The notes: generated by a model from the sequence alone, not told the origin. A DNA stretch of 63,123 nt from an uncultured Gammaproteobacteria bacterium (GCA_964569045.1 CAZMSR010000006.1:1-63123); one strand, 5' to 3'; shown: positions 24,322 through 61,675, counted from the first letter of the stretch. Translations and numbers: made by a program.

Positions 24322-24350
24322 TAATAATTTTTTATGAATTTATTTTTTAG

Positions 24351-24602: not shown

Positions 24603-24637
24603 TATGAATTATGTTAGCAGTTGAATATAGCTAGTAA

Positions 24638-25195: not shown

Positions 25196-25215
25196 ATATA
25201 ATAGTTTCTATAAAT

Positions 25216-39385: not shown

Positions 39386-39417
39386 TTAAAATAGATATTA
39401 CTTCTTAATTATTTATT

Positions 39418-41280: not shown

Positions 41281-41837
41281 TGAATATTAATATTCAAAGG
41301 CAAATAAATATTTTTTTGGCAAACTATTTTACTTACTTGGTATTTATTTTAGTGATTGTGATTTTAAGTATTGGATATTTATTTGTACTAAAGCCTAAAA
41401 AAGAAGCATTTGAAGAAAATATTGGAAGAGAAGCAGTAGCACGAGAGCAACAATACCTAGCTCTTAAAAAGGATTTAGCCGGGTTAGAGGAATTAAGTTT
41501 AGCGTATAAAGGTATAGATTCGAAAAATATTGCAAAATTAGATAAAATTTTGCCATTAAAGCCGGATTTAGAAGAGTTAATGAAGCAGATTGAAGTAATT
41601 GTGTTCCAGAATGGATTACTTATGACAAGTATGGCTATTCGTGAGGAATTGTCAAAAACTCAAAAAATTGGAGTTGCTAGAATTACATTGTCGGTTGTAG
41701 GGACAGATTATATGGGTTTAAAAACTCTTTTAAGAAGTTTTGAGAATAATTTAAGATTACTTGATGTGCAAACAGTGAATTTTACTCCGGACGGAAGGAG
41801 TGCAAATTTAGAAATTAATGCTTATTATCAATTGTGA
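41280..41837 (+). CDS. PilO-like pilus assembly protein
   Basis: 185 aa with an N-terminal TM helix, a coiled segment and a C-terminal alpha/beta region. TAATG overlap with the upstream gene. Called by position and topology. Confidence 0.5.
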   Translation: MNINIQRQINIFLANYFTYLVFILVIVILSIGYLFVLKPKKEAFEENIGREAVAREQQYLALKKDLAGLEELSLAYKGIDSKNIAKLDKILPLKPDLEELMKQIEVIVFQNGLLMTSMAIREELSKTQKIGVARITLSVVGTDYMGLKTLLRSFENNLRLLDVQTVNFTPDGRSANLEINAYYQL

Positions 41838-41861
41838 AATTAGTAAATTTAATAATAATTT

Positions 41862-42218
41862 ATGTTAGTTGCCACTAAAATAACACAAAAAAGAAAAATA
41901 GTTGCTTATGGGTTAATTATGTTTATAATGGTTTCTTTTAGTATTTACTTAGCTTATGATTATTATGTAGAATCACTTGAGCTTTCAGGGGCTGATAGTG
42001 GGTTACCGGCGTATATTTCTAGGCTGGGAAGCGGAGCTGGATTAAAGGTTGTAGATGATGAAGAGGTGAAAGACTCTGAATCCAGAATAAGAGAATATTT
42101 TGACATTGATTTATTTTATGATCCAAAGTTTAGAGCTTTAAAGGAAAATGTGGCTGAAGATATTGATCTTGATTTGGGCAAAAGAGACCCATTTAAGAGT
42201 TTTGTTGAAGCAGAATAG
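41862..42218 (+). CDS. small membrane-anchored hypothetical protein in pilus operon
   Basis: 118 aa with one TM helix (VAYGLIMFIMVSFSIYLAY) and an acidic C-terminal part. No recognisable family. Confidence 0.4.
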   Translation: MLVATKITQKRKIVAYGLIMFIMVSFSIYLAYDYYVESLELSGADSGLPAYISRLGSGAGLKVVDDEEVKDSESRIREYFDIDLFYDPKFRALKENVAEDIDLDLGKRDPFKSFVEAE

Positions 42219-42256
42219 GGTTTAAAATTTTTATTATATTTTAGCGGCATTAAATT

Positions 42257-44005
42257 ATGACAAAACAAGAGGAGCTTATAAAAGCATTGCTTAAGAATAA
42301 CCTTATTAGTCAAAAAAAAGTAGATAGTGCTTTAGAAGAAGCAAAAAAAGCAAAAAAAACTTTTGAAAGCGTTATTTTATCTAGGCAATATATTGATTCT
42401 GAAGTTCTTGTAAAGACAAAGTCAAACTTGTATGGTCTTGATTATGTAAATTTGTTTGATATTAAAATAAATGATTCTGCTCTTAATACGATTCCTCTTG
42501 AAGTAGCTGAAAATTATAATGTTGTATGTTTTGAAGTTACAGATAAATTGATAAAGGTTGGCTTGGCTAGACCTGATGATTTTAAAGCAATTGGTGCAAT
42601 TGATTTTTTGGCAAAAAAGAAAGGCTTAAAAGTAGAATATTACTTGATTTCTCCAGGTAGCTTTAAGCATGCATCAAAGCAGTATCAGTCAATGAGTAGA
42701 GAGGTTGTATCTGCTTTGCAAGCTAAAGAAGAAGAAGAAAAAGAACTTATAGAAATAAAAGAAAAAGAAGTTGAGAGTGTTGAACTTGAGGAGGTTGTTA
42801 AAAGTGCCCCGGTAACAAAAATAGTATCTGTAATAATAAGGCATGCTGTTGATGGTAAGGCTAGTGATATTCATGTTGAGCCTTTGCTTAGAGAGACAAG
42901 AGTAAGATATCGTATTGATGGTATTTTGCATACTTCCTTGGTTTTACCAAAAAATATTCATTATGCTGTTGTTGCTAGGATTAAAGTGTTAGCAGGACTT
43001 AAATTAGATGAAACAAGAATACCTCAAGAGGGGCGTATAAGATTACTTATTAATGATAAGGAAATTGATTTTCGTATTTCAATAATTCCATTAGTTGACA
43101 CTGAAAAGGTTGTGATGAGAATTTTAGATGTTACAAAAGGAGCTCCTACTCTTGAGGAGTTAGGTTTTGAAGGACGCGAAGCAAAAGTGATTAAAGAACA
43201 TATTAAAAGAACATATGGTATATTTTTAATAACAGGACCAACTGGATCAGGAAAGTCAACTACTTTGTTTTCTATTTTAAATATGATAAACAAGGAGGGT
43301 GTTAATATTTCTACTTTGGAGGATCCTGTTGAATATTACGTGCCTGGTGTGAATCAATCTCAGATTAGACCTCGTTTGGGATATACGTTTGCCTCTGGAT
43401 TAAGAACATTGTTACGTCAAGATCCTGATGTTATGATGGTAGGTGAAATTCGTGATAATGAAACCGCTGAATTGGGAATACATGCGGCACTAACCGGACA
43501 TTTAGTTTTGTCTACTTTGCATACAAACAATGCAATAGGTGCTTTGCCGCGTTTAGTGGACATGGAAGCTGAGAAATTTTTATTAGCCTCTACTATTAAT
43601 GTTATTTTGGCTCAACGTTTAGTGCGTAAGATATGTAATAGTTGTCGTGTTAAAGCTGAGATTCCTAAGAATATGAAAGAAGATGTACAAGAAAATATTA
43701 AAAAAATACCATTAGACGTTTTAAAGAAAAGAATAAAAGGTTATAACGCAGATAAAATGACATTTTTTAAAGGTAATGGCTGCACTCGATGTGGTAATAC
43801 CGGTTATTCCGGTCGAATGGCTATTACAGAGATTGTTGATATAAATGATAAATTAAGAAAAATTATTTATGATCCAAGGGCTGTACTCACAATTGAAGAT
43901 GTAAAAGAGACTCAAAAGTTTGTAAGTTTAAATCAAGATGGCTTAATAAAAGCAATGCAAGGTAAAACTACATTAGAGGAAATATTAAGAGTTATTTCAG
44001 AGTAG
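42257..44005 (+). CDS. pilB: type IV pilus assembly ATPase PilB (GspE family)
   Basis: N-terminal T2SSE_N-like domain, Walker A GPTGSGKSTT, Asp box, Walker B DPDVMMVGEIRD, His box, tetracysteine CNSC...CTRC. Confidence 0.92.
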   Translation: MTKQEELIKALLKNNLISQKKVDSALEEAKKAKKTFESVILSRQYIDSEVLVKTKSNLYGLDYVNLFDIKINDSALNTIPLEVAENYNVVCFEVTDKLIKVGLARPDDFKAIGAIDFLAKKKGLKVEYYLISPGSFKHASKQYQSMSREVVSALQAKEEEEKELIEIKEKEVESVELEEVVKSAPVTKIVSVIIRHAVDGKASDIHVEPLLRETRVRYRIDGILHTSLVLPKNIHYAVVARIKVLAGLKLDETRIPQEGRIRLLINDKEIDFRISIIPLVDTEKVVMRILDVTKGAPTLEELGFEGREAKVIKEHIKRTYGIFLITGPTGSGKSTTLFSILNMINKEGVNISTLEDPVEYYVPGVNQSQIRPRLGYTFASGLRTLLRQDPDVMMVGEIRDNETAELGIHAALTGHLVLSTLHTNNAIGALPRLVDMEAEKFLLASTINVILAQRLVRKICNSCRVKAEIPKNMKEDVQENIKKIPLDVLKKRIKGYNADKMTFFKGNGCTRCGNTGYSGRMAITEIVDINDKLRKIIYDPRAVLTIEDVKETQKFVSLNQDGLIKAMQGKTTLEEILRVISE

Positions 44006-44070
44006 TTAATTAAATGTAATTATTAGTTATTTAATAAAATGGTTGTTTTTAAAAAAATAATAATCAAAAT

Positions 44071-44496
44071 ATGCCAAAATCAAAAGGTTCAATTTTAATA
44101 GTAGAAGATGATTTTTTTCTATTAAATATTTATTCAACAAAGTTTGAGGGAGAAGGGTATGAAGTATTTGTAGCGCCTGATGGAGCAAAAGGAATTGAGC
44201 TTGTTGCACAAAGAAAACCAGATATAATTTTGCTTGATGTTTTAATGCCTAAATTAGATGGATTTGGTTTTTTAAAAGAAATTAAAAAAGACAAGAAATT
44301 GAGCGAAATTCCAATTATTTTATTAACAAACTTAAGTCAAAAAAAGGATATTGATAGAGGATTAGCAATGGGTGCTAATGATTATTTAGTTAAGGCTCAT
44401 TTTATGCCATCTGAAGTTGTAGAAAAAGTAGAGACTTTGATAAATAAGTTTGTTAAAAAAACCGGAAAAAAGAAAATTAAAAAAAAGAAAGTTTAA
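44071..44496 (+). CDS. receiver-only response regulator (CheY-like) with Lys-rich tail
   Basis: ILIVEDD, phospho-acceptor region PDIILLDVLMPKLDG, LLTNL, DYLVKA. The C-terminus is KKTGKKKIKKKKV and there is no output domain. Confidence 0.85.
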   Translation: MPKSKGSILIVEDDFFLLNIYSTKFEGEGYEVFVAPDGAKGIELVAQRKPDIILLDVLMPKLDGFGFLKEIKKDKKLSEIPIILLTNLSQKKDIDRGLAMGANDYLVKAHFMPSEVVEKVETLINKFVKKTGKKKIKKKKV

Positions 44497-44501
44497 TTAA
44501 T

Positions 44502-44576
44502 AGCGAGTGCTTGAAATTAGCATCCGCTCACCACTCTGCACAATTGCACGTAGTGATGAGTTATTGTAATTAACAA
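44502..44576 (+). other. GC-enriched structured intergenic element between regulator and pilC
   Basis: Imperfect hairpins agcgagtgc/gcatccgct (44502-44528), ctcaccact..agtgatgag (44527-44560, 8 of 9 pairs, inner tgca/tgca) and attgt/acaat (44562-44576). No U tract follows. Confidence 0.35.
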
Positions 44577-44594
44577 TGATTAAAAAGTAATTAT

Positions 44595-45806
44595 ATGGCT
44601 GTCTATAAGTACAAGGCAATAAATACTTCTGGTGAGGAAGTTGAAGGATTGGTGGATGCAGTTAGTGATCAAGAAGCTTCACAGCTTGTTGCTGCTAAGG
44701 GGTTTAAAGTTGTTTTTGTTAAGGCAGAAAAGACAAAAGGAAAGTCAAAAAATATAGTTATTACTTTTGGTGCTAAAGTTAAAACAAAGGATCTTGTAAT
44801 TTTCTTTCGTCAATTTGCTGTAATGATTTCTGCTAATGTTGCTATGGTGCAAGCATTAAAAATTATAGTTGAGCAAACTACAAATATTAAACTTAAGATG
44901 TTAATTTCTGAAATAGCTGATGAAGTTGACTCTGGTTCAAGGTTGTCAGATGCTATGATAAGGCATTCAAAAGTATTTAGTAGTTTTCATACTAGTGTTA
45001 TAAGAGGAGGAGAAACTTCTGGTAAGCTAGCTGAATCATTAACTTATTTAGCTGATGAAGTTGAAAAGGATTATGATATGATTTCTAAAATTAAAGGGGC
45101 TATGACTTATCCTGCTTTTGTTTTAATTGGTTTATTAATAGTAGGGTTTGTTATGATGATATTTGTTGTTCCAAAATTAACCGGTGTTTTAACTGAGTCT
45201 GGTGTTGCGCTTCCAATAGCAACTAAAATACTTATTGCCACTTCTAATTTTATGCAAAATTATTGGTTTTTAATAATTATTGGTTTGATTGGGCTGGGAA
45301 TATTTTTAAAAATATATATGTCTACTCCACGAGGTAGATATGTAGCTGATTTTATTTTACTTAAACTCCCGATTTTTGGACAATTATTTCAAAAAATTTA
45401 TATTGTTAGGTTTTCACGTTCAATGGAAACTTTGATTTCCGGTGGAATTACTGTTAATGAGAGTTTAAAAGTGTCAGGAGATGTTGTTAATAATAGAGTG
45501 TTTGCAAAATTAATTAAAAAAACTACTCAAGATGTTGAAGATGGTTCACCAATGTCAGCTACACTGTCTACTTCCAAAATGATACCACAGATGGTGGCGC
45601 AAATGGCTAGTATTGGAGAAAAAACTGGTAAACTTGATATGATTTTAGGAAAGGTGGCTAAATTTTATCAAAGAGAAGTTAATAATACTATTGATAATTT
45701 AATGACATTAATGGAGCCAATTATTATGGTGATAATGGGTGTTGCTGTGGGCACAATGGTGGCAGCAGTTATTTTGCCTATGTATAATATGGCAACTGCA
45801 TCTTAG
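44595..45806 (+). CDS. pilC: type IV pilus platform protein PilC (GspF family)
   Basis: 403 aa with two T2SSF repeats (FFRQFAVMISANV; FSRSMETLISGGI) and three TM segments. Confidence 0.9.
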   Translation: MAVYKYKAINTSGEEVEGLVDAVSDQEASQLVAAKGFKVVFVKAEKTKGKSKNIVITFGAKVKTKDLVIFFRQFAVMISANVAMVQALKIIVEQTTNIKLKMLISEIADEVDSGSRLSDAMIRHSKVFSSFHTSVIRGGETSGKLAESLTYLADEVEKDYDMISKIKGAMTYPAFVLIGLLIVGFVMMIFVVPKLTGVLTESGVALPIATKILIATSNFMQNYWFLIIIGLIGLGIFLKIYMSTPRGRYVADFILLKLPIFGQLFQKIYIVRFSRSMETLISGGITVNESLKVSGDVVNNRVFAKLIKKTTQDVEDGSPMSATLSTSKMIPQMVAQMASIGEKTGKLDMILGKVAKFYQREVNNTIDNLMTLMEPIIMVIMGVAVGTMVAAVILPMYNMATAS

Positions 45807-45988: not shown

Positions 45989-46459
45989 ATGAGACGACAA
46001 AAAGGTTTTACATTAATTGAGTTATTAGTTGTTATTGCTATTATTGGTTTACTATCAACTTTAGCAGTAATCGCCCTTAATAACGCAAGAGCAAAATCTA
46101 GAGATGCTCGACGTGTTTCTGATATTAAGCAAATTCAATCTGCTTTAGAGTTGTATTATAATGATATGAATGGTTATCCGTATGCAGCATCTTATGCTAG
46201 TATTGAAGATAATTGTCTTCAAGCCAATGAAGGTGGATTTGTTGGTTCAACATGTACTGCAACAGGTACTGTTTACATGACAAGAGTCCCAGGCAATCCG
46301 GAGCCAGGAGGTACTACATATCAATACATAAATACTGACAGTACTGCTAACAGAACATATGCTATTGAATATGAATTAGAAAATGGTGCAGGTGGAGTTC
46401 CAAGCGGTATTCAGACTGCTTCACAAGCAGGCACCTATGGTGGCGACTATACTCGTTAA
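45989..46459 (+). CDS. type IV pilin (prepilin with N-terminal methylation motif)
   Basis: Leader MRRQKG then FTLIELLVVIAIIGLL (class III signal, Glu at +5). Two Cys in the mature part. Confidence 0.9.
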   Translation: MRRQKGFTLIELLVVIAIIGLLSTLAVIALNNARAKSRDARRVSDIKQIQSALELYYNDMNGYPYAASYASIEDNCLQANEGGFVGSTCTATGTVYMTRVPGNPEPGGTTYQYINTDSTANRTYAIEYELENGAGGVPSGIQTASQAGTYGGDYTR

Positions 46460-46607: not shown

Positions 46608-47069
46608 ATGTGTTATAAAAATAAACAGGGTTTTACATTAATAGAATTACTGGTAGTTATTGCTATTATTGGTTTAATTTCGACTTTATCAATTATTGCT
46701 TTGAATGGTGCTAGGTCAAAATCTAGAGATTCACGAAGAGTGTCGGATATTAAGCAAATGCAAGCTGCGCTCGAGCTTTATTATAATGATCGGTATTCAT
46801 ATCCTCCCGGAGAGAACGTGGATATTGCAAATAAGTGTTTAGATTCAAATGAGCTTGGTTTTAATACTTCTTGTACGGCTGGTGCCCTTCTGTACATAAC
46901 TACTATACCAAGTACGCCTCAACCAAATGGAGATAAAGAATATACTTATTCAAATACTGATGACAATAAAGCAAGAACTTATAAGTTAGAATATTCATTA
47001 GAAAATTCTACCGGAGGTATTCCAGCCGGCCTTCAAACAGCATCGCAAGCCGGAATTTACGGTGGTTAA
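46608..47069 (+). CDS. type IV pilin paralog
   Basis: Leader MCYKNKQG then FTLIELLVVIAIIGLI. Collinear with pilin 1 and matching at roughly 60 percent of positions by eye, with two Cys in the mature part. Confidence 0.88.
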   Translation: MCYKNKQGFTLIELLVVIAIIGLISTLSIIALNGARSKSRDSRRVSDIKQMQAALELYYNDRYSYPPGENVDIANKCLDSNELGFNTSCTAGALLYITTIPSTPQPNGDKEYTYSNTDDNKARTYKLEYSLENSTGGIPAGLQTASQAGIYGG

Positions 47070-47151: not shown

Positions 47152-47175
47152 AATCCCTTTAAAGGGATTTTTTTT
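47152..47175 (+). terminator. rho-independent terminator after pilin 2
   Basis: aatccctttaaagggatt palindrome followed by a run of eight T. Confidence 0.6.
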
Positions 47176-47197
47176 ATGTAAAATATCGTTACTTAAT

Positions 47198-49234
47198 ATG
47201 AAAATAAATAAATACATAAATAAGTTTGGATTTTTTAGTATTTTGTTGATTGTTTTTTTGGTGCCAATTTATTTTTCTTATTTTGTAAGAGGGTATGATT
47301 TTTATGTATTACCAAAACAGGGTCTGTTTCATTTGCTCGTAATGTTTGGTGTGATTAGTTTTTTAGTTAATGTTTTTGTTAAAAAAAAATTTAAATGTAA
47401 GACTAGTATTGTTTTAAAAAAATTTTTATTTATTTTATTTTGTTTGTGTTTATCGTTATTGATTTCTGTATTATTTTCAGATACTCCACAAAGTAGTTTT
47501 TGGGGTGTTTTTTTGCGTGAACAAGGTCTTTATTCTTATTTATATTATATTGTCTTTTTTTTATTGATAATTTGTGTTGTAAAAACCGCTTCACAAATAG
47601 AGTATGTATTATTAGTTGTGCCTTTTTCTTCGTTTTTAATTGGAATTTACGGTCTGTTTGAATATTATGGATTATTTGAAGGGCATTTTGATGGTAGAAT
47701 TGCTTCTACATTAGGGCAGCCTAATTATTTTGGGCATTATTTAATTATGACATTTCCCGTATTAGTGTACTTTTGGTTTTTTTTAAAAAGAGGTGTGGCT
47801 TGGAAGATTTTTCTTTTAATGGTTATGATTTTGCAATTTGCGAATTTAATTTTTACTTATAGTCGAGCAGCATGGTTAGGGTTTATTGTTGCTTTAGGTA
47901 TTTTTTTGGTAGTTTTATGCTTTTTAAAATTTTTTAGTTTAAATAAAAAAAATAATGTTTTAACAAATAACATTAAAATTAAAAGGAGGCCTTTACTAAT
48001 TATTTTTTCTATTATTTTTTTCGTTTTTATTTTCTTTTTTAATAATGATTTTTTTTACAATAGATTAGCTAGTTTTGCTGATTTTAGTTCAGGTTCTATT
48101 AAAAATAGGTTAATATATTGGAGTGCTTCTATTAATGAGTTAAGAGATATGGATGCTAAAAAAGTTCTATTTGGATATGGACCGGATGCAATGGGAAATG
48201 TTTTTGCAAAGCATTATAAAAAAGAAAATGCTATTTTTGAAAAAATAAACACCTATCCTAGTCGGGCTCATAATTTCATATTTGATTCACTGCTTCAATT
48301 TGGAATTGTTGGATCCTTAATGTTTTTTTTATTTTTTTATTATGTTTTAGAGGGCGCAATATTTAGTATTAAGAAATATTCACCTAACTCTAAAGAGCGT
48401 TGGTTGATTTATGCTTTATTGATAGCTATTTTTGCACATTTTATAAATAATTTATTTAGTTTTTCTTTGGTTGTTACTAGTATTTATACTTATTTATACT
48501 TAGCTTTGCTTTGTAGATTGTCTTATAGAGAAATAATAAATTGTAGTTTTAGTAATAATTGTGTGCGGTTTTTATTTTTTTATAGGTTTATTATTTGTTT
48601 GATTTTAATTTTTTTACTATGTATAGTTTATAATTACGATTATAAATTTTTAAAAGCTGATTATTTTCGTTTTCAAGCAGAAAAAGCGTTTTTAGTAAAT
48701 GATTGTGATCGTTTTGCAAAAAATATTAAGAAGTCTATTGCTTTAAATTTTTATAAACTTAGATATAAGCAGGATTTTTTAGAGTATGGATCAAGGTGTT
48801 TGCTAAAAATAGAAGAAGAAACGGCTAAACAAATTTTGGTAAATGATTTGATTGATATTATTACTCAGATAAAGTTGTTAAGCCCTGATTATAGATCTAC
48901 AATAAGTGTAGCTCATACGTATTCATATCTAGGACTTCAAGTAAATCCTGTTTATTTTAAATTAGCAGAATTAGAATATTTGGCAGCAATTAATTTTAAT
49001 CCGGAGTTGAGTTTGCCATATCGTAATTTAGCTCAAGTATTGGCTTGGCAAGGTAAATATAGAGAAGCTTTAAAGTATTTAGAGGTTGGTTTAAGTAATA
49101 TGCCAAATGTTCGTGACTCTCGTTTAGAGCTCCAAGTTCATAAAGAACATAAGGAAGAAGTAAGACAAGAATTGGATGCGTTTAGAGGTATAAAAAATTA
49201 TATTATGACTCGCTTTTCTTTTTTTGAGCGTTAA
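47198..49234 (+). CDS. O-antigen ligase (Wzy_C) family membrane protein with C-terminal TPR domain
   Basis: GRIASTLGQPNYFGHYL, TYSRAAWLGF and SRAHNFIFDSLLQFGIVG in a polytopic N-terminal part. The C-terminal ~200 aa are TPR-like (AELEYLAAINFNPELSLPYRNLAQVLAWQGKYREALKYLEVGL). Confidence 0.75.
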   Translation: MKINKYINKFGFFSILLIVFLVPIYFSYFVRGYDFYVLPKQGLFHLLVMFGVISFLVNVFVKKKFKCKTSIVLKKFLFILFCLCLSLLISVLFSDTPQSSFWGVFLREQGLYSYLYYIVFFLLIICVVKTASQIEYVLLVVPFSSFLIGIYGLFEYYGLFEGHFDGRIASTLGQPNYFGHYLIMTFPVLVYFWFFLKRGVAWKIFLLMVMILQFANLIFTYSRAAWLGFIVALGIFLVVLCFLKFFSLNKKNNVLTNNIKIKRRPLLIIFSIIFFVFIFFFNNDFFYNRLASFADFSSGSIKNRLIYWSASINELRDMDAKKVLFGYGPDAMGNVFAKHYKKENAIFEKINTYPSRAHNFIFDSLLQFGIVGSLMFFLFFYYVLEGAIFSIKKYSPNSKERWLIYALLIAIFAHFINNLFSFSLVVTSIYTYLYLALLCRLSYREIINCSFSNNCVRFLFFYRFIICLILIFLLCIVYNYDYKFLKADYFRFQAEKAFLVNDCDRFAKNIKKSIALNFYKLRYKQDFLEYGSRCLLKIEEETAKQILVNDLIDIITQIKLLSPDYRSTISVAHTYSYLGLQVNPVYFKLAELEYLAAINFNPELSLPYRNLAQVLAWQGKYREALKYLEVGLSNMPNVRDSRLELQVHKEHKEEVRQELDAFRGIKNYIMTRFSFFER

Positions 49235-49240
49235 TATTGC

Positions 49241-50353
49241 ATGATTAATCAAGATAGTATTAAAAGAAATAAAGAGATTATTTTTAATAGTATTTGTCTA
49301 TTATTAGTTTACAAAGTTGTGATTATTATTGCAGCTTTTTTTTATTTTTATTATACATTTCATTATATTGAATTTGACATTAAATTGTTATTAAATTTTT
49401 GGACACAATGGGATGCTAAGCATTATTTAGATATTGCGAAAAATGGATATGATATAACAAAGGCAAATATGGCATTTTATCCATTGTATCCATTATTAAT
49501 TTATATTTTTAGTCCTTATTTTGGTTTTGAATTGTCTGCACATATAATAAATTCATTAGTTCAATTTGGGTTAATTTTGGGTCTGTATAAGTTAGCTTTA
49601 TTAGATCTTGATAGATGCGCTGCCTGGCGTGCTTGTTTTTATTTGTTACTTTTCCCGGCAGCAATTTTTTTTAATTCAATATATACTGAATCACTTTTTT
49701 TATTTTTTGCTGTATGGATATTTTATTATGCAAGATTGCGTAAATGGAGCGAGTTTAGTGCATTTGGTTTTTTTATCGGACTAACAAGAATTGAGGGTTT
49801 AGCTGTTATGCTTTTTGTTCTATTTGAGTATATGCAAGGTATAAAATTTAAATTTAATTTAATTAAATTAGACATGCTATATGTTTTTTCACCTTTATTT
49901 GGATTGTTAAGTTATTTGGTGTATTTGAAGGTGAGACATGGTGATTATTTTTTATTTTTAACTTCGCAGAGTGCATGGGGTAAGGAGTTTACTTTGCCAT
50001 GGAGTTCTATTAATAGTTATTTAGAAGTATTTTTTAATTCAACAACGCAAGCTTTTTACATTTCAAGAGATATTGATTTATTTTTTTTCTTATTTGGTGT
50101 TTTTGTGAGTGTGTGTCTAATGTTTATGCTGAGATTTTCTTATGGAATTTATTCTTTGTTTACGATTTTAATGGTTAGTTTTACCGGTGATTTAGTTTCG
50201 AGTAATCGGAGATTTTTATTGTTGTTTCCGGCTTTTATTTTGTTTGCAAAATGGGGAGAGGATCGTTATGTGAATTTTTTTATAATTTTTATATTTCAAG
50301 CTTTTTTCTTTTTAAATATGTTTAGGTTTATACATGGTTTTTGGGTTGGTTAA
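49241..50353 (+). CDS. polytopic membrane protein, PIG-V/mannosyltransferase-2-like (GT-C-type)
   Basis: 370 aa with ~9 hydrophobic segments. The loop motif WDAKHYLDIAKNGY resembles the WD..hYL.IAe.GY motif of PIG-V-type mannosyltransferases. Confidence 0.5.
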   Translation: MINQDSIKRNKEIIFNSICLLLVYKVVIIIAAFFYFYYTFHYIEFDIKLLLNFWTQWDAKHYLDIAKNGYDITKANMAFYPLYPLLIYIFSPYFGFELSAHIINSLVQFGLILGLYKLALLDLDRCAAWRACFYLLLFPAAIFFNSIYTESLFLFFAVWIFYYARLRKWSEFSAFGFFIGLTRIEGLAVMLFVLFEYMQGIKFKFNLIKLDMLYVFSPLFGLLSYLVYLKVRHGDYFLFLTSQSAWGKEFTLPWSSINSYLEVFFNSTTQAFYISRDIDLFFFLFGVFVSVCLMFMLRFSYGIYSLFTILMVSFTGDLVSSNRRFLLLFPAFILFAKWGEDRYVNFFIIFIFQAFFFLNMFRFIHGFWVG

Positions 50354-52217
50354 AATTAATTTTATGTTTTATGAGAAAATTAAAAAAGTAAAGGGTTGGA
50401 TTTTTTCAAGCTCTTTGTTTATGCTTATTCTTTGCCCCGGTTTTTTAAATGCTGGCAAGGATGTGCTTATTTTAGAAGTGTTAAGCGTTTGTTTTGGTGC
50501 TTTAAGTATTTTTTATTTTTTTAAAGTTAAGACAAGTTTTTTTCATAACAGATCTATAGATTTGCCTATTTTATTATTTTTGGGGTTGTTTTTGGTATTT
50601 GGTTTTTTTGGGATTGTTTTTTCTAAATCGTTATTTGTTAGCTTAGAGGCATGGTTCTTGTATTTAATGTATTTTTTAGTATTTATTATTGGCTCTAAAA
50701 TATTATTAACTCGTAAAATATTTAAACAGTATTTATTTTTGTGCGTATTAGCTTCGTTGGTTTTGTCTGTTGTCGGGCTAATGATATATATGACCGGTTC
50801 TTATAATCGTTTAACATCTGTTTTTTATTGGCCAAATCCGTTTGCTACATATTTATTAATGATGCTTCCTTTTATATTTTATTTATTAAAATGTGGAGAG
50901 TTGAAACAGAAGTATGTGGTTTTTATTAGTGCTCCTTTGATTTTTGCCGCCTTTTTGTTAACAGGTTCTAGAGCGGCTTATATTACTTTTATTTTTTTAA
51001 GTCTTTTTTTATTGTTTAGAGATTTTAAATATGTGCGAAAAAAATATAAAGTATTTATTTTAGTTTTTCTTTTGGTATTTAGTGTGGTTTTTTTAACAGG
51101 AAAAATTAAAAAAAATGATGATACTTTTTTAAGTAGAGAAATAAATAATAATGAAATTTTAGATGTATCTTCAAACATGCGTTTGAGTTACTATGATGCC
51201 GGATTAACTATTGTATATGATTATTTATTTTTTGGAGTTGGATTAGGAACTTTTAGTCATTTGTATCCCATATATCAAGAAAGTCCAATCACTGCAACTA
51301 AATATATACATAATTGGTATTTAGAGATTTTACTTGAAATGGGGGTCTTTGTATTTTTAACCTTTTTATTATTTTTTTTATTTGTATTTAAAAAGATTGC
51401 GTCTTATTTTTACAGTGATGGGGTTGTTGTGTTGTTTTTGTCGATTAGTGCTTATCTGATGCATAATTTTGTTGATATTGGTTCGCATTATTTGGCTAAT
51501 AATGTAGTTTTTTGGTTTAATTTAGGACTTTTAGTTAATGTGTTTAGTAAATTTGACTCTAAAAGAAAGGTTTTGGTTAATAAAGAAAGTATATTTTTTA
51601 AATATTTATTTTTATTTATTGGAATTTTAATTTTTATAAAAGGATTTATTGGATTGCACTCCGCAAGTAATTATAATTTAGGCAAAAAGGCACAATTTTA
51701 TGGAGATTATATAAAAGCAAATGAATATTTTGAAAAATCTGTTTTAATATATCCATATATTGAAAAGGTAAGAGATTTAGGTATTAATTATTTAATTCTT
51801 GCTTCTTTAGAAAGCGATGTTTTAGTAAGAAATTTTTATTATTCAAGGCTTCAAGAGATAACAAGTTTTTTAGTTAGACATGAAGGGTTGAACGCATTAA
51901 ATTATGAGTTAAAAGGAAAATTTTATGAAAGCATGAATAATTTTAAAAAAGGGGAGAAAGCTTATACAAAAGCCGTAAATTTAAATAAATTTAGTCCAAG
52001 ACATACAATAAATTTAGCTAGTATTTTAATTTTAAGAGAAGAGCACAAGAGAGCTATTGAGTTAATAGATAATTTTTTTATTCATTATCCGGAAGATGTA
52101 ATTGAAAGAAAAAGAATAAAAATTTTGCCTAATCAAAAAATAACATCCGGCATTAAAGAGCAGATTAATTTACTTCGTTACTTACAAAAATTATCGCTAA
52201 ACTTGCTTTACCAATAA
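50334..52217 (+). CDS. O-antigen ligase (Wzy_C) family membrane protein with C-terminal TPR domain (second copy)
   Basis: NRLTSVFYWPNPFATYLL, TGSRAAYITF, YIHNWYLEILLEMGVFVF. The C-terminus is TPR-like (GDYIKANEYFEKSVLIYP; KGEKAYTKAVNLNKFSPRH). An alternative start at ATG 50364 is possible. Confidence 0.75.
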   Translation: MVFGLVKINFMFYEKIKKVKGWIFSSSLFMLILCPGFLNAGKDVLILEVLSVCFGALSIFYFFKVKTSFFHNRSIDLPILLFLGLFLVFGFFGIVFSKSLFVSLEAWFLYLMYFLVFIIGSKILLTRKIFKQYLFLCVLASLVLSVVGLMIYMTGSYNRLTSVFYWPNPFATYLLMMLPFIFYLLKCGELKQKYVVFISAPLIFAAFLLTGSRAAYITFIFLSLFLLFRDFKYVRKKYKVFILVFLLVFSVVFLTGKIKKNDDTFLSREINNNEILDVSSNMRLSYYDAGLTIVYDYLFFGVGLGTFSHLYPIYQESPITATKYIHNWYLEILLEMGVFVFLTFLLFFLFVFKKIASYFYSDGVVVLFLSISAYLMHNFVDIGSHYLANNVVFWFNLGLLVNVFSKFDSKRKVLVNKESIFFKYLFLFIGILIFIKGFIGLHSASNYNLGKKAQFYGDYIKANEYFEKSVLIYPYIEKVRDLGINYLILASLESDVLVRNFYYSRLQEITSFLVRHEGLNALNYELKGKFYESMNNFKKGEKAYTKAVNLNKFSPRHTINLASILILREEHKRAIELIDNFFIHYPEDVIERKRIKILPNQKITSGIKEQINLLRYLQKLSLNLLYQ

Positions 52218-52285: not shown

Positions 52286-53917
52286 ATGAAAAAATTAATT
52301 AGAAATTTATTTAATAAAGAAGGTTTTTTAGTATTTTTAATATTGGCGTTGATTATTGTTGTTAGAGTAGTGTATTTGTTAAATTGGAAATCTTTTTTAG
52401 ATGGTGATGAATCTTTGGTCGGGGTTATGGCAAAGCATATTACTGAAGGAAAAAGCAGCCCAATTTATTATTATGGGCAATCGTATATGGGAACATTAGA
52501 GCAGTATGGCGCGGCAATGTTGTTTGTTGTTTTTGGAGCAAGTCCTTTTGTATTAAAATTGGTTCCTTTATTATATTATAGTTTATCTTTGTGGTTAGTG
52601 AGTCTAATAATTCAAAAGTATTACAAAAAAGCGGGTTCAGTTTATTACCTTTTTTTTAGTGTATTTCCTTCATTGTTTGTAATTGTTTGGAGTACAAAAG
52701 CCAGGGGTGCATATTCTGAAATGGTATTTTTATGTATCTTATTTCTTTATTTCTTATTTAAATTTCAGGAAAAACCTAAGCTTAGTTACTTATATTTTTT
52801 ATCGATTATTTTTGGTTTTAGTGTTTATCTTAATTTACTTTGTCTGCCATTTTATATTGTTATATTGATATTGCACTCGCTTGATGCTCGTAAAGCTCAA
52901 AGTGTGTATTCTTTAGTTGATAGAATAAAGTTATTTTGTATTTCGGTAGTGTCTTTTTTAATTGGATATCTTCCAGCCATAGTATATATATTTAATAACC
53001 CGGGAAAAGATTATATGCATTTTGATTTTCCGGAGATTGGTCAAATATTTGATAATATTATAATTTTATTCTCTGAGCTAATCCCATTAATTTTAGGAAG
53101 ATATTTAAATAATTTTGATCAGTTGTCAATATTTGTAATTGCAGAATTAATTCTATTTAGTCTGTCTTTATTTGCTATCATTACTATTTTACTCGAGTAT
53201 AGAAAGTGTTTTTATGGTTTGCTTTTTTTTAAAAAAAGTAAATATCCAAAAATATTTTATTTAATTGTTATTTTTTTTGTTTATGTGGTGGTTTTGGTGT
53301 TTTCTCCTTTTGAGCTACATATGCCAAATCCTCAGATTGTGTTACAAAATAGTCATAATTTTACTGAATTAGTAAATGAATTGCCATTTTATCTTCCATT
53401 GGTTCGATACATGATATTTGGAATAATTATTATTCCGTTAATGCTTTTTATAGCCTTTAATGTCATAAAAGAAAAAAGTAATAAATTGGCCAGTGTTTAT
53501 ATTTGGTTTGTATTTTGTTCCGGGTTAGTAATTTCCTCTCAAACTATTTTTATAAATGATAATCAAGAGCTTTCTTATACTTACAAAGCTTTTTTAGTGC
53601 GAAAAGATTATTCAGAGTTAATTTTATTTTTAAATCAACATAATCTTTATTATGGGTTTGCAGATTATTATGATCAATGGAATATTAATTTTATATCAGG
53701 TGAGAGAATCCGGTTAGCTACTAGATCCTTGCCAAATTATGCCGGAGTTGATAATAGATATAACGATTATTTAGAGTTAGCAAATAGACACTCTCATAGA
53801 TTAGTAAATATCTATTATGATACTCAAGTGAGCAGTATACAAGAAGTTAGAAAAGAATATAATAAGGCCAGAAATAGTAATATTAAAATAATCAATGATT
53901 TTGTTGTAATTTATTAG
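52286..53917 (+). CDS. GT-C-fold membrane glycosyltransferase (ArnT/PMT-like)
   Basis: 543 aa, polytopic. The acidic motif FLDGDESLVGVMAKHI lies right after TM1. The C-terminal soluble domain YGFADYYDQWNINF is shared with the next gene. Confidence 0.6.
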   Translation: MKKLIRNLFNKEGFLVFLILALIIVVRVVYLLNWKSFLDGDESLVGVMAKHITEGKSSPIYYYGQSYMGTLEQYGAAMLFVVFGASPFVLKLVPLLYYSLSLWLVSLIIQKYYKKAGSVYYLFFSVFPSLFVIVWSTKARGAYSEMVFLCILFLYFLFKFQEKPKLSYLYFLSIIFGFSVYLNLLCLPFYIVILILHSLDARKAQSVYSLVDRIKLFCISVVSFLIGYLPAIVYIFNNPGKDYMHFDFPEIGQIFDNIIILFSELIPLILGRYLNNFDQLSIFVIAELILFSLSLFAIITILLEYRKCFYGLLFFKKSKYPKIFYLIVIFFVYVVVLVFSPFELHMPNPQIVLQNSHNFTELVNELPFYLPLVRYMIFGIIIIPLMLFIAFNVIKEKSNKLASVYIWFVFCSGLVISSQTIFINDNQELSYTYKAFLVRKDYSELILFLNQHNLYYGFADYYDQWNINFISGERIRLATRSLPNYAGVDNRYNDYLELANRHSHRLVNIYYDTQVSSIQEVRKEYNKARNSNIKIINDFVVIY

Positions 53918-53921
53918 TTTT

Positions 53922-55463
53922 ATGTTTTTTTATAAAAAAAGTATTTTTATTACCATATTTCTAATGTTTTGTATTTGTCTTACAAGGTTTGTGTTTCTTG
54001 ATAAGGCAGAATTATTTATTGACTCAGATGAGTCTTTAATTGGTGTGATGGGAAAACATATTTTAGATGGTAAACCGGTGCCTATTTTTTCTTATGGACA
54101 AGCATACAAAGGTACGTTTGAGTCAATAACCCATACTTTGTTTTTTAAGGTTTTTGGAATATCGTCATTTATTTTAAAGTTAGTGCCGTTTTTTTATTTA
54201 TTATTGTCAATATTATTGATTTGCGTTATTTTAAATAAATTTACTAAATTAAATTACAATAATTATTTGACACTGCTAATTTTTGTGCCTTTGTTTTCAT
54301 TAGTTATTTGTTTAAAAGCTGGGTATGGCATGGAAGTTGTGTTTTTTTGTTTTTTATTCTTACTGTTATTTTTTGAATTTAAACGAGAAAAAAACATAAA
54401 TTATTTATATTTAATGGCATTTATTGTTGGTTTTACTTTATATCTTCAAGCAATGTCGTTACCCTTTTTTCTTGTTGTTATGTATGTAGGTATTTTGGAT
54501 CAAAAACCAGGAAATAAGATTTTGAGAATTTCGTTTAAACACGTAATTATTGTTATCAGCTCTCTTGTTATAGGTTTTTCACCGGCTATTTATTTTAAAA
54601 TAATTTTTGGCTTTAATTATGATGTTAATTTAAAGCTAGATTTAGTTAATAATTTACTACATAACTTTAATTTAGTGATAAATAAAATTATTCCTGCTTT
54701 TTTTGGCGGATATGATTTTGAATGGGGTAGTTATAGTATTTTTTCTTTATCTGAGATTGTTTTGGTTTTTGTGGGTGTATTTGCTTTTTTGTATGCAATT
54801 TTTATAAAAAAAAAGGAGTTGTTTGATTTAATTTTTTTTAAAAAAAGAGACTTTAGTGCTGAAATTTATTTTTTAACTATTTTTATTGCTTATATAGTAA
54901 TTTTATTTGTGTCACCTTATGTTCGTGATATTTATAGCTTACGTTATTTGCTGACTATTGTTTTAATATATCCAATATTAATAATTATTGCAGAGAGAAA
55001 TTTGAGATGTATTTCAGTTTTGCTTTCTCAAGTATTTATTATTTTTTTTGTTTGTGGTTCGTTTATGTTAATGATGCAAATTTTTTTTATAAATAAAAAT
55101 ACAAACACTAAATTGTTTAGAGTTTTTTTTAATTCTTTTGAGTATAATGAGGTGATAGAATTTTTAATAGAGAATGATTATAAGTATGGGTTTGCAGATT
55201 ATTGGGATCAGTGGAATATTAATTTTTTATCTGAGGAAAAGATATCTTTAGCTGCATTTGAACCAGGAGATTATTGGCGTAACAGATATATACCATATTA
55301 TCATTCTGCAATAAACAGTCCTGATCCTGTTTATATATATAGACATCCGATTAAAAAAGAAAATTTTAACGTAATTTTGAGTTCTTTGCCTAGCGACTAT
55401 GAGTATATAATGATTAATAATTTTGTTGTATTTTATAAAGCTAGAGATTTTAAAAAGAGTTGA
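53922..55463 (+). CDS. GT-C-fold membrane glycosyltransferase, tandem paralog of 52286..53917
   Basis: FIDSDESLIGVMGKHIL after TM1, collinear TM pattern, C-terminal YGFADYWDQWNINF. Confidence 0.6.
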   Translation: MFFYKKSIFITIFLMFCICLTRFVFLDKAELFIDSDESLIGVMGKHILDGKPVPIFSYGQAYKGTFESITHTLFFKVFGISSFILKLVPFFYLLLSILLICVILNKFTKLNYNNYLTLLIFVPLFSLVICLKAGYGMEVVFFCFLFLLLFFEFKREKNINYLYLMAFIVGFTLYLQAMSLPFFLVVMYVGILDQKPGNKILRISFKHVIIVISSLVIGFSPAIYFKIIFGFNYDVNLKLDLVNNLLHNFNLVINKIIPAFFGGYDFEWGSYSIFSLSEIVLVFVGVFAFLYAIFIKKKELFDLIFFKKRDFSAEIYFLTIFIAYIVILFVSPYVRDIYSLRYLLTIVLIYPILIIIAERNLRCISVLLSQVFIIFFVCGSFMLMMQIFFINKNTNTKLFRVFFNSFEYNEVIEFLIENDYKYGFADYWDQWNINFLSEEKISLAAFEPGDYWRNRYIPYYHSAINSPDPVYIYRHPIKKENFNVILSSLPSDYEYIMINNFVVFYKARDFKKS

Positions 55464-55464
55464 T

Positions 55465-57027
55465 ATGAAAAAAGTATTTTATTTTCTAAATGTAAAATTT
55501 TTAGTATATGTTTTTTTTATTGCATATTTTATTATTGGGATTTTTTTGACACCTCATTATGGGTTATCATGGGACGAAGAAGTACAGCGTAAGAAAATCG
55601 GTGAAAACAATTATGAGTATATAATCGGAAATATTTCAGAATTGGATGAGTTTCATAGGTATTATGGACCAGTTTTTGAAATATTTTTAATTTTACCTGA
55701 AAAGTTGTTTAATATTGTTGATTCGCAAAAAATATATATATTAAGGCATTTTTTTACTTTTTTTGTTTTTTATATTGGGGTTGTTTTCTTTTTTTTAATA
55801 AATAAAAAGATTTTTAAGAGTGAAATTTATGCATTAATTGCTGTTTTAATGCTTGTATTGCATCCACGAATTTTCGGTCATTCTTTTTTTAATTCAAAAG
55901 ATATCCCTTTTTTGTCTTGTTTTATAATTAGTGTTTATAGTTTAAGGTTATTTTTAGAAAATAAAAATTATAAAACTGTTTTTTTGCATGCATTTGCATC
56001 GACTGTTTTAATCGGTATACGAGTTTTAGGGGTTATTATTCCTTTTTTAACTTTTGCTTTTTTAATTTTTGAATTGCTAATGATGAATAAATATTGTCTA
56101 ATGCAAAAAATATGTAAAAAATTTTGGATGTTATATTTTTTATTAGTTGGTGGGCTGGTTACTTTATTTTGGCCGCATCTTTGGAATAGCCCTGTTAGCG
56201 GCATTATTGATGCTTTTCAATTTATGAGTAATTTTAACTATTATTTGGATGTTTTGTATCTTGGTAATTATATTAGAGCAGATAATTTACCATGGCATTA
56301 TGTTCTTATTTGGATTTTTATATCAACTCCTATTGTATATCTGGTATTTTTTGTTTTTGGAATAATAACTATTTTTAAAAAAATATGCAATAATAAAGTT
56401 AGCTGTTTTAATTTAAATAAAATTGATTTTTTGTTAATTATTGTTTGGTTTTTTGTGCCAATTATTTTAGTTTTAGTTTTAGGGTCAGTAATTTATGATG
56501 ATTGGAGGCATTTATATTTTGTTTATCCGGCATTCTGTGTTATTGCAACACTGGGGGTTTGGCAAATTGTTAATAATTTAAAAATAAAGAATTTTAAACT
56601 TGGGTTGGTAGGTGTATTATTTGTTTTTTTGAATTTCACATTTGTAATTCGCGAGATTTATAAATTCCATCCTAATGAAAATGTTTATTTTAACAGTATT
56701 GCAAAATTATTTGAAGGTAATTTAAGATATTATTTTGATATTGATTATTGGGGTTTGTCTTATAGGCAAGCGCTTGAATATATTCTTTTAAATGATTCAT
56801 CTAAAATTATTAACATTTATGTGCTAAATTTTCCAGGTGAGCTTAATAGAAAAATTCTTATCAAAAATTCTAGACAAAGAATAAAATATGTAAAAAATAT
56901 TAGTGAAGCTGACTATTTTATTAATGATTATAGGTTTTATAAAGATGAGTTTGCACCGGGAAGTACTTTTTATTCTCTATCTATTGATAATATTAGTATA
57001 ATAGATGTATTTAAGTTAAAGATGTAG
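55465..57027 (+). CDS. GT-C-fold membrane glycosyltransferase (GT39/ArnT-like)
   Basis: HYGLSWDEEVQRK after TM1, ~11 hydrophobic segments, C-terminal soluble domain. The start is taken at ATG 55465 because the track start 55423 is TTG inside the previous gene. Confidence 0.65.
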   Translation: MKKVFYFLNVKFLVYVFFIAYFIIGIFLTPHYGLSWDEEVQRKKIGENNYEYIIGNISELDEFHRYYGPVFEIFLILPEKLFNIVDSQKIYILRHFFTFFVFYIGVVFFFLINKKIFKSEIYALIAVLMLVLHPRIFGHSFFNSKDIPFLSCFIISVYSLRLFLENKNYKTVFLHAFASTVLIGIRVLGVIIPFLTFAFLIFELLMMNKYCLMQKICKKFWMLYFLLVGGLVTLFWPHLWNSPVSGIIDAFQFMSNFNYYLDVLYLGNYIRADNLPWHYVLIWIFISTPIVYLVFFVFGIITIFKKICNNKVSCFNLNKIDFLLIIVWFFVPIILVLVLGSVIYDDWRHLYFVYPAFCVIATLGVWQIVNNLKIKNFKLGLVGVLFVFLNFTFVIREIYKFHPNENVYFNSIAKLFEGNLRYYFDIDYWGLSYRQALEYILLNDSSKIINIYVLNFPGELNRKILIKNSRQRIKYVKNISEADYFINDYRFYKDEFAPGSTFYSLSIDNISIIDVFKLKM

Positions 57028-57157
57028 TATTTATTCACTGTTTAAAACTACTTGTTTCAAAGTTTTTATAAAATATTAAAAATTATATATTTTTAATATT
57101 TGATTGTAATTTTTTGAAAAAATAGTTTTTATCGGTGACTTGTTATTAGGTGTAGTT

Positions 57158-57895
57158 ATGCTTATTGAGTTTTGTTTGCCAGTATATAATGAAGAGCAAA
57201 TTATTGAATCAAATGTGCTTAGATTGCTTGATTTTTGCAAGTTAAAGTCATACGAATTTGATTGGTATATTATTATTATTGACAATAATTCAAAAGATCA
57301 AACAAGTAAGATTGCGGATTTATTGTCACGATCATATCCGAATAGAATTAAGTCTGTGAGAATCGGAAAGTCTGGGAAGGGGTTAGCTTTAAAGTATTGG
57401 TGGCATATAAGCGAGGCTGATGTACTTGCTTATATGGATATTGATTTAGCTGTTTCGCTTGAATATTTGGATAGACTTATTAATCCGATTGTATTTGGTA
57501 AATATGATTTAGTTATTGGATCGCGTTTATTGTCTGATTCTGAGGTAGATAGGTCTATGTTTCGTGAGTTTAACTCAAGAGCTTATAGTAAGCTTTCTCA
57601 GTTAATGTTGGGTCATGAGTATAAAGATTTGCAATGCGGATTTAAAGCAGCTAAGACTAGCATGTTAAAGAGATATACTCCTTTAATTAAAAATGATAAA
57701 TGGTTTTTTGATACAGAGATAGTTAGTTTTTTTAATTTAAATAATAATAAAATATTAGAAATTCCGGTTAATTGGAAAGAGTCAAGGTATGACGCTCGTA
57801 AAAGTAAGATGAGTGTGTTGCGCGATGGGTTTGATTTTCTTGTGAATTTATTAGAACTTAGGAAAAGAATTCGTGACTACAAGAGAAATATTTAA
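57158..57895 (+). CDS. GT2 glycosyltransferase, polyprenyl-phosphate sugar synthase-like (Dpm1/GtrB type)
   Basis: LPVYNEE, IIIIDNNSKDQT, YMDIDLAVS, LVIGSR. Start at ATG 57158 (track start 57140 is TTG). Confidence 0.8.
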   Translation: MLIEFCLPVYNEEQIIESNVLRLLDFCKLKSYEFDWYIIIIDNNSKDQTSKIADLLSRSYPNRIKSVRIGKSGKGLALKYWWHISEADVLAYMDIDLAVSLEYLDRLINPIVFGKYDLVIGSRLLSDSEVDRSMFREFNSRAYSKLSQLMLGHEYKDLQCGFKAAKTSMLKRYTPLIKNDKWFFDTEIVSFFNLNNNKILEIPVNWKESRYDARKSKMSVLRDGFDFLVNLLELRKRIRDYKRNI

Positions 57896-57925
57896 TTATT
57901 ATTGTTAATTCAAATATTTTGTAAC

Positions 57926-58660: not shown

Positions 58661-58693
58661 TTAGCATTGAATCATTATTTAGTACCAAGCTAG

Positions 58694-58731
58694 TATAACT
58701 AGATGATTAGTGAAAATTTACACCACCTTAG
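58694..58731 (+). repeat. intergenic repeat family, copy C
   Basis: tataactagatgattagtgaaaatttacaccaccttag. Its last 32 nt (58700-58731) match 63038-63069 at 30 of 32 positions. Confidence 0.7.
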
Positions 58732-58737
58732 TACTAA

Positions 58738-60167: not shown

Positions 60168-60173
60168 GTATAC

Positions 60174-61655: not shown

Positions 61656-61675
61656 GTGAAAATTAATTAACAAGT

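Follow-up and report, generated by a model that had tools for sequence, protein, structure and literature searches.

Which enzyme, if any, attaches glycans to the pili of Patescibacteria, and is it encoded beside the pilins themselves? Type IV pili (T4P) are the best-supported host-attachment organelles of Patescibacteria, or Candidate Phyla Radiation (CPR), bacteria. O-glycosylation of pilins has been suggested for Saccharibacteria by a sequence predictor only, with no enzyme named (PMC12206443). The question is raised anew by a stretch of 63,123 nucleotides (nt), here called the window (GCA_964569045.1 CAZMSR010000006.1:1-63123). It is recorded under an uncultured Gammaproteobacteria bacterium; the organism is an ultra-small Patescibacteria bacterium, Falkowbacteria-like. 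Behind the second of two pilin genes the window carries three co-directional open reading frames (ORFs) on the + strand, which encode WzyA (47198-49234; 678 amino acids [aa]), a PIG-V-like protein (49241-50353; 370 aa) and WzyB (50334-52217; 627 aa). An earlier reading of this DNA from the sequence alone (the sequence-only reading) had described them as two proteins with a Wzy_C domain and a C-terminal tetratricopeptide repeat (TPR) domain and one PIG-V-like protein, as the ORF listing and Pfam matches bear out. It had further proposed all three as candidate pilin O-oligosaccharyltransferases (O-OTases). Our analysis narrows that proposal to one gene, WzyA, whose candidacy as a new pilin O-OTase variant with a fused TPR domain is strong; the other two appear to be accessory.

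Genomic context of the WzyA family

WzyA follows directly on pilin 2 of the window. We compared this arrangement among 85 loci, comprising 80 GTDB species representatives from a scan of one genome per species, close relatives, and the window. Gene calls in these loci were crude: the longest non-overlapping ORFs were kept, and labels were assigned by phmmer with the window proteins and by a regular expression for prepilins. Of the 80 loci in which a gene upstream of WzyA was called, 53 carry a pilin gene directly upstream and on the same strand; once near-duplicates are set aside, the figure is 50 of 77. The prepilin peptidase gene PilD lies downstream of WzyA in 64 loci, in 33 of them as its immediate neighbor. 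Given a background of 8% pilin-like genes in these loci, the pilin adjacency has a naive binomial P of about 5e-35, a value that ignores shared ancestry. The dominant order is PilM-N-O-x-PilB-response regulator-(PilT-like)-PilC-pilin(1-3)-WzyA-(0-7 genes)-PilD-FtsA-FtsZ. The adjacency of a Wzy_C gene to pilins, from which the sequence-only reading had argued, is therefore kept in relatives, for WzyA only.

Other Patescibacteria have PilC, pilin and PilD contiguous, as in four metagenome loci (L095, L097, L103 and L105), suggesting that a slot within the pilus operon is taken up by WzyA and the genes that accompany it. The metagenome scan was seeded with pilin, and the matches listed are mostly to generic pilin N-termini; it provides individual cases rather than a frequency of pilin-WzyA pairing. 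Taken together, a functional tie between WzyA and the pilus is likely. In many genomes PilD is followed directly by FtsA and FtsZ (for example, L009:11842-15716 and L062:12267-15605), so that pilin-maturation genes abut cell-division genes.

The WzyA family is large. A word-index search identified 103 homologues, nearly all with both Wzy_C and TPR; those that are named belong to Patescibacteria, Parcubacteria or Falkowbacteria. With the transmembrane (TM) domain of WzyA alone as query, a full scan at E<=1e-30 identified at least 194 clusters (50% identity). Proteins of 650-820 aa make up most of its 150 best matches, and the match is confined to their first ~445 residues. Since homologues carry the same architecture, the TPR fusion is the norm of the family and not unique to the window. 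Of the doubled, TPR-fused arrangement that the sequence-only reading had taken to be new, the fusion is standard in this family of at least 194 clusters and the doubling is sporadic. Many GTDB records (L007, L008, L012 and others) are titled "uncultured Gammaproteobacteria", which looks like placeholder taxonomy; their WzyA homologues and pilus-operon order match those of loci titled Patescibacteria or Falkowbacteria.

Domains, predicted fold and conserved residues of WzyA

WzyA consists of a Wzy_C core (residues ~1-445), a 13th TM helix (~460-482) and a TPR domain (~500-678), as delimited from Pfam, the AlphaFold2 (AF2) model and Foldseek. The Wzy_C match (E 1.1e-16) scores 61.4 bits against a gathering cut-off of 31.7, and the same domain is matched by all 38 WzyA relatives examined. 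In WzyA itself the TPR matches are weak (residues 608-637). The domain is nevertheless firm at the family level, because 34 of the 38 relatives match TPR_2 (best E 1e-18) and the family profile matches consensus TPR structures. Of the domains that the sequence-only reading had named, then, Wzy_C was found in both WzyA and WzyB, and TPR was found weakly in the window proteins and firmly in the WzyA family; PglL_A was found in neither window protein (see below). No Pfam match of WzyA is to a GT-C glycosyltransferase family. The one NCBIfam match of the Wzy_C proteins, to "IctB family putative bicarbonate transporter", stays far below its cut-off (33 and 51 bits against 366); we rejected this as a naming artifact of the shared Wzy_C core.

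An AF2 model built from a 38-sequence alignment has a pLDDT of 88.9 and a pTM of 0.90. Comparison of this model by Foldseek, a course that the sequence-only reading had pointed to, returned the O-antigen ligase WaaL (7TPG_B) as best match (E 1.8e-4; target TM-score 0.68) and as the sole match at E<=0.001. It is the lone membrane protein among the 50 matches listed, the rest being TPR or other helical-repeat proteins. We are confident that the predicted fold is WaaL-like.

Residues R107, R167, G173, P175, N176, R304, G326, G328, H358 and D363 are invariant in the WzyA family alignments. S222 is invariant in the alignment of the TM domain and nearly so in the full-length one, and R223 and Q174 are nearly invariant. 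When the TM-domain profile was aligned by hhalign to WaaL of E. coli K-12, R223 fell on R215 and H358 on H338, and R304 lay one position off R288. The three WaaL residues are reported as required and are conserved in PglL as R224, R298 and H349 (PMC3643930). From the predicted fold and the conserved residues, the conserved WzyA is probably a catalytic enzyme of the WaaL fold.

The orientation of WzyA can be predicted from its helices and loops. There are 13 long helices, and the Lys/Arg-rich loops (63-70, 250-262, 393-399 and 443-459) alternate with the conserved loops (93-110, 157-174 and 282-359). From the helix count and the positive-inside pattern we infer that the conserved loops and the TPR domain lie outside the cell.

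The pilins and a candidate acceptor

Both pilins have the type IV signature. Pilin 1 (45989-46459, +; 156 aa) matches N_methyl (E 1.1e-10) and GspG/pilin models of NCBIfam and has the tail ...GIQTASQAGTYGGDYTR; pilin 2 (46608-47069, +; 153 aa), the candidate acceptor, matches N_methyl (E 3.2e-9) and has the tail ...GLQTASQAGIYGG. The C-terminal peptides that bear the candidate acceptor region read ...AGLQTASQAGIYGG. The stretch QTASQAG is common to the two window pilins, and the sequence-only reading had suggested it as an acceptor in the manner of TfpO, which modifies a C-terminal Ser. The shared tail stands, but the analogy to a terminal Ser does not: the window pilins end in R and G, with Ser/Thr placed 5-8 residues from the end. 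The motif A-(S/T)-x-x-G-(I/L) occurs at 5-8 residues from the C-terminus in 40 of 44 non-redundant pilins that lie directly upstream of WzyA, and only 2 of the 44 end in S or T. A terminal-residue acceptor of the TfpO/TfpM kind was accordingly rejected; most of the pilins end in G, R, N, D or residues like these.

With 4981 matches, the pilin family is very large. In a 76-sequence alignment its C-terminus follows the pattern ...LEGxTGG(L)xAGxHTA(S/T)xxG(I)..., with hardly any variation at A145 and G149, Thr at position 144 in 67 sequences and Ser or Thr at position 146 in 61. The AF2 model of pilin 2 (pLDDT 90.7) places residues 141-146, including T144-A145-S146, in the last beta-strand. The strand may hold a near-terminal, internal acceptor site. 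Three pilins that directly precede PilD (L095, L097 and L105) lack the HTA(S/T)xxG(I/L) tail, a comparison of few cases that is phylogenetically confounded. In L091, a Patescibacteria-like metagenome contig, a pilin (7968-8432) is directly followed by a 749-aa YfhO-family GT-C protein (8528-10777, +; PF09586, E 5e-24), not a Wzy_C/TPR protein; the tail of that pilin, ...HTATQNGLQ, has the same motif as WzyA-linked pilins.

Comparison with known glycosylation systems

Four families of Wzy_C O-OTases have been reported, namely PglL, PglS, TfpO and TfpM; all are 420-620 aa long and none has been described with TPR (PMC9829042). A position next to a pilin gene has precedent in TfpO, TfpM, PglS and many PglL proteins (PMC3643930, PMC9829042), with 21 of 31 PglL homologues adjoining pilin genes (PMC3643930). 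WzyA resembles the pilin-specific O-OTases TfpO (PilO; Pseudomonas aeruginosa 1244, Acinetobacter) and TfpM (Moraxellaceae) in being a Wzy_C protein with a conserved His whose gene lies directly downstream of a pilin in the same orientation. The lipid-diphosphate-linked glycan donor and the acceptor near the pilin C-terminus that we propose for WzyA would also be shared with them. TfpO and TfpM, however, are 420-470 aa proteins without an extra domain (PMC9829042), whereas WzyA has 678 aa (650-820 in the family) with its 13th TM helix and TPR. They modify a Ser or Thr that is the very last residue, whereas nearly all WzyA-linked pilins end in G, R, N, D or the like. Their hosts are proteobacterial, whereas that of WzyA is a Patescibacteria bacterium.

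PglL of Neisseria and PglS of Acinetobacter share with WzyA the Arg/Arg/His set and a sizeable extracytoplasmic C-terminal region, and they use internal sequons, as proposed for WzyA. The Q-x-N and G-x-G spacing of WzyA looks similar to that of the PglL-specific residues Q178/N180 and G316/G318 (PMC3643930), compared by listed positions. WzyA differs in that it does not reach the PglL_A model and that its C-terminal domain is TPR. Moreover, PglL is a general O-OTase that is not linked to pilE in Neisseria, whereas WzyA is pilin-linked.

The TPR module has a counterpart in P. aeruginosa Pa5196/PA7, where the pilin glycosyltransferase TfpW carries a TPR domain in the periplasm and its gene lies directly downstream of pilA (bioRxiv 10.1101/2020.04.19.049825). 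Like WzyA, whose TPR domain is predicted to lie outside, TfpW is polytopic with a large C-terminal TPR domain. The polyprenyl-phosphate sugar donor genes that accompany it (bioRxiv 10.1101/2020.04.19.049825) can be likened to the putative ones of the WzyA locus. TfpW, however, is an ArnT-like GT-C enzyme with a DDX motif, in contrast to the predicted WaaL-like fold of WzyA; the GT-C and GT2 genes downstream of WzyA are closer to TfpW chemistry than WzyA is. The other polytopic proteins encoded there have D-E motifs behind the first TM helix, and some match PMT_2, weakly or significantly. By model and analogy, WzyA would thus join a catalytic core of the TfpO/PglL type with a TPR module of the TfpW type.

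WaaL itself (7TPG of Cupriavidus metallidurans, and the E. coli enzyme) is the best structural match to WzyA, with three functional residues aligned. WaaL sits with the lipopolysaccharide (LPS) core locus, whereas WzyA lies beside pilus genes and genes for GT2, GT-C and methyltransferases and has the additional TM helix and TPR. Neither Lpx nor Waa genes turned up in the window or the 85 loci. Patescibacteria are generally described as lacking LPS. Within the limited literature covered, we found no published description of this module in Patescibacteria/CPR.

WzyB and the PIG-V-like protein

WzyB scores higher for Wzy_C than WzyA does (E 1.2e-20; 74.3 bits against the cut-off of 31.7), with TPR_2 and TPR_8 below threshold. 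It keeps the SR, R, GxG and HN motifs, including the Arg/Arg/His set, and inspection of its sequence reveals an extra TM helix behind a basic stretch, as in WzyA. The two proteins are only 24% identical and so appear to be old paralogues, not the products of a recent duplication. Only 20 WzyB homologues were found, and their distribution is sporadic. WzyB directly follows WzyA in L001 and lies between WzyA and a GT2-PilD pair in L087. In L004 (12022-14499, +) the WzyB orthologue is an 825-aa triple fusion of GT2, Wzy_C and TPR, which suggests that WzyB works together with a GT2. In L088 and L089 WzyB is found among GT2 and GT4 genes with no pilus genes nearby. These features make WzyB more likely an accessory polymerase or second-step transferase than a second pilin O-OTase. 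In L087 (6371-14338) the WzyA-WzyB-GT2-PilD series is followed by a Peptidase_S74 gene and then by a cluster of radical S-adenosylmethionine (SAM) and HxsD-like genes.

The PIG-V-like ORF encodes a polytopic, GT-C-type glycosyltransferase and overlaps the start of WzyB by 20 nt at its end. It matches Mannosyl_trans2 (E 5.3e-10) with 39.6 bits against a cut-off of 22.4, over profile positions 53-234 of 443, and is absent from L001 and L004, the two closest relatives of the window. Both WzyB and the PIG-V-like gene look like variable glycan-assembly genes. Candidacy as pilin O-OTase, claimed earlier for all three genes, thus survives for WzyA and is less likely for WzyB, with its 20 homologues, GT2 linkage and sometimes off-pilus position, and for the PIG-V-like gene, which the closest relatives lack.

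A variable island between WzyA and PilD

Between WzyA and PilD lies a variable island made up of genes for GT2, GT-C and methyltransferase proteins, which reaches ~16 kb in the window. Assigned gene by gene with Pfam, the 92 genes in this position in 31 loci are for the most part glycan genes and include 25 GT2, ~28 SAM-dependent methyltransferases and 5 GT4; PMT_2, GT9 and FkbM genes are also inserted. The largest islands are those of the window and of L001 and L004, whose WzyA proteins are 42% identical to that of the window.

Behind WzyB the window encodes three polytopic GT-C-like proteins of 543, 513 and 534 aa (52286-57027, +), with weak PMT_2 matches (E 2.4e-4 and 2.2e-3) and a D-E motif behind the first TM helix in each. 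The genes for the 543- and 513-aa proteins (52286-55463) are adjacent paralogues (phmmer E ~1e-66 to 3e-67) that share the motif (L/I)D(G/S)DES(L)(V/I)GVM(A/G)KH after the first TM helix; the pair looks like a tandem duplication inside the island. Next are a GT2, a SAM-dependent methyltransferase and a second GT2 (57140-59463, +; Glycos_transf_2, E 4e-20 and 3e-35; Methyltransf_23, E 7e-22). The island GT2s may be polyprenyl-phosphate-sugar synthases that supply the GT-C enzymes. The series ends with a 215-aa membrane protein, a 493-aa GT-C-like protein and a PMT_2-family GT-C (59520-63022, +; PMT_2, E 4.7e-8). The pairing of the 215-aa protein with the PMT_2 protein is seen again in at least 11 related loci. 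On longer contigs of the same organism, which carry an identical PMT_2 protein, PilD and minor-pilin-like genes come next and then DNA ligase; the 16-kb glycan run therefore sits between the major pilins and PilD with the minor pilins.

A proposed pathway and its alternatives

The region would, in our proposal, be the start of a pilin glycosylation island embedded in the T4P gene cluster. A glycan would be assembled on a polyprenyl-diphosphate carrier and flipped, and WzyA, as an enzyme of the WaaL/PglL type, would move the carrier-bound glycan to the major pilin on the external side of the membrane. The likely target would be the conserved Thr/Ser in the C-terminal ...HTA(S/T)xxG(I/L) strand, and the outward TPR domain may serve as a docking module for the pilin or the pilus machinery. 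Synthesis, extension or decoration of the glycan would fall to the genes between WzyA and PilD, a set that varies by strain. In the window this set would comprise the PIG-V-like gene, WzyB, five further GT-C-like genes, the two GT2s, the methyltransferase and the small membrane protein. The GT2s would make polyprenyl-phosphate sugars, to be used on the glycan outside the cell by the GT-C enzymes (PIG-V-like, PMT_2 and others), and WzyB might polymerize the glycan or add a second block. That WzyA is a pilin O-OTase seems to us about an even proposition. We place at the same level the fuller reading in which it represents a new, TPR-fused class of such enzymes, with the glycan built or decorated by WzyB and the PIG-V-like enzyme.

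Several observations weigh against this proposal. A terminator-like hairpin, AATCCCTTTAAAGGGATT followed by TTTTTTT (47152-47176, +), splits pilin 2 from WzyA in the 128-nt spacer between them. The WzyA ATG at 47198 lies ~22 nt beyond the hairpin and T-run, just as the sequence-only reading had described, and similar hairpins occur in 29 of the 50 related spacers between pilin and WzyA. WzyA stands behind SecDF, not behind a pilin, in 23 species. The loci were selected through WzyA itself, and the synteny counts lack phylogenetic independence. Within the window, no initiating phosphoglycosyltransferase was seen. The hhalign probability for WzyA and E. coli WaaL is only 63%, and a profile of the WzyA TM domain alone finds no PDB sequence at E<=1. 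Searches of PDB sequences with the whole proteins and the full-length profile gave TPR matches only, apart from a marginal match of WzyB to WaaL (7tpg, E 0.14), so that the link of WzyA to WaaL rests on the predicted fold and the hhalign alignment. PglL_A (PF15864) is matched neither by WzyA at E<=1 nor by WzyA or WzyB at E<=0.01; the sub-threshold matches in 6 of the 38 WzyA relatives (best E 0.002), of which that in P0051 covers the invariant GQPN motif, count in favor of the proposal. The candidate Ser/Thr of the pilins lies in a predicted beta-strand and is replaced by Cys, Asp, Gly or Arg in ~20% of homologues, and the tail motif may for these reasons be purely structural. Finally, the acceptor class of Wzy_C proteins, be it that of an O-OTase, a WaaL-type ligase or a Wzy-type polymerase, is not separable by sequence (PMC9829042).

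That last point favors the alternative that survives best, in which a general surface glycopolymer (S-layer, lipoglycan-type or wall polymer) has WzyA and WzyB as its polymerase and/or ligase, and their place between pilin and PilD is historical. The repeat units would come from clusters such as that at 9357-26568 of the window, which includes nine GT4 genes, a UDP-GlcNAc 2-epimerase, a GDP-mannose 4,6-dehydratase, an epimerase/reductase, five or more methyltransferases and a divergent Wzx-like flippase (25216-26568). No polymerase or ligase gene (no Wzy_C) was found within this cluster, and no Wzz-like chain-length regulator was noticed. WzyA and WzyB both lie outside the cluster, ~20 kb from the Wzx-like gene. 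WzyB relatives in glycan clusters away from pilus genes also fit a surface polymer, as does the hairpin behind the pilin. So do the 23 SecDF-type species, in which the order is ClpP<-SecD-SecF-WzyA-PilD-FtsA-FtsZ with no pilin upstream. In a rough neighbor-joining tree, pilin-adjacent WzyA spans the deepest splits of the family; the SecF type is confined to one part, interleaved with pilin-adjacent clades. What speaks for the pilus instead is that WzyA is never beside Wzx/GT4-type clusters in the 85 loci, that it stands alone between pilin or SecF and PilD in 33 of them, and that the prepilin peptidase is still adjacent where the pilin is not. The contiguity of pilin and PilD in other lineages, moreover, implies an insertion into the pilus operon. 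On balance we consider a general surface polymer doubtful, at perhaps half the weight of a pilin O-OTase. If WzyA is a pilin O-OTase, the 9357-26568 cluster is a possible source of its lipid-diphosphate-linked donor.

A role of WzyA chiefly in pilus assembly or anchoring is improbable. Here the external TPR would act like PilF/PilW or bind wall glycan, and the Wzy_C core would be an anchor or serve another substrate. Some members bear the JGI name "O-antigen ligase/Tfp pilus assembly protein PilF", the TPR region has a weak Foldseek match to the pilus biogenesis factor PilW (2VQ2, rank 47), and WzyA is as syntenic with PilD, a machinery gene, as with the pilin. However, the Arg/Arg/His set and GQPN remain invariant across proteins of 25-45% identity, which argues for a conserved active site, and glycan genes accumulate immediately downstream of WzyA.

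Equally hard to sustain is a model of one O-OTase per pilin, which is suggested by the two pilins and two Wzy_C genes of the window, L001 and L004 and by the motifs and extra TM helix/TPR layout that WzyB retains: we rejected it because many loci pair two or three pilins with a single WzyA, and WzyB, with few homologues, a GT2 fusion in L004 and non-pilus contexts in L088 and L089, would face window pilins whose shared tail calls for no second specificity.

The pilus operon and flanking genes

Upstream of the pilins, the T4P operon of the window (38336-45806, +) encodes PilM, a long PilN-like protein, PilO, a 118-aa ORF, the PilB ATPase, a response regulator and the PilC platform protein. Pfam matches include PilM_2 (E 1.7e-48) and PilO (E 1.8e-4). 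The same order is found in L001 and L004, with matches to T2SSE, Response_reg and T2SSF, and the operon is found in most loci. The gene in the PilN position (39418-41280, +) encodes 620 aa, which is unusually long, and has no Pfam match; its relatives range from ~220 to 640 aa. Divergent from pilM lies a gene for a 409-aa, PD40-like beta-propeller protein (36940-38169, -), whose position is kept in L001 and L004; proteins similar to it in size and orientation occupy that spot in several other loci. The genes between the 9357-26568 cluster and the pilus operon are housekeeping genes.

Implications

Should the assignment of WzyA prove wrong, its family would still be a very common membrane enzyme of Patescibacteria that is tightly tied to pilus genes. 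If it is correct, PglL, PglS, TfpO and TfpM would be joined by a fifth O-OTase class, a TPR-fused Wzy_C transferase of a bacterium that has no outer membrane, which would be of interest for glycoengineering. The module of pilin, WzyA, glycan island and PilD would name both a candidate enzyme and a concrete, testable acceptor motif, and it would mark a variable locus that may govern host specificity. We offer a broader picture more tentatively: that Patescibacteria of this lineage carry strain-variable pilus glycans, installed by this fifth class with its extra TM helix and external TPR, which is encoded with pilin and PilD as a pilin-maturation module, and that the hypervariable island tunes how these epibiotic bacteria recognize their hosts or evade phages and predators.

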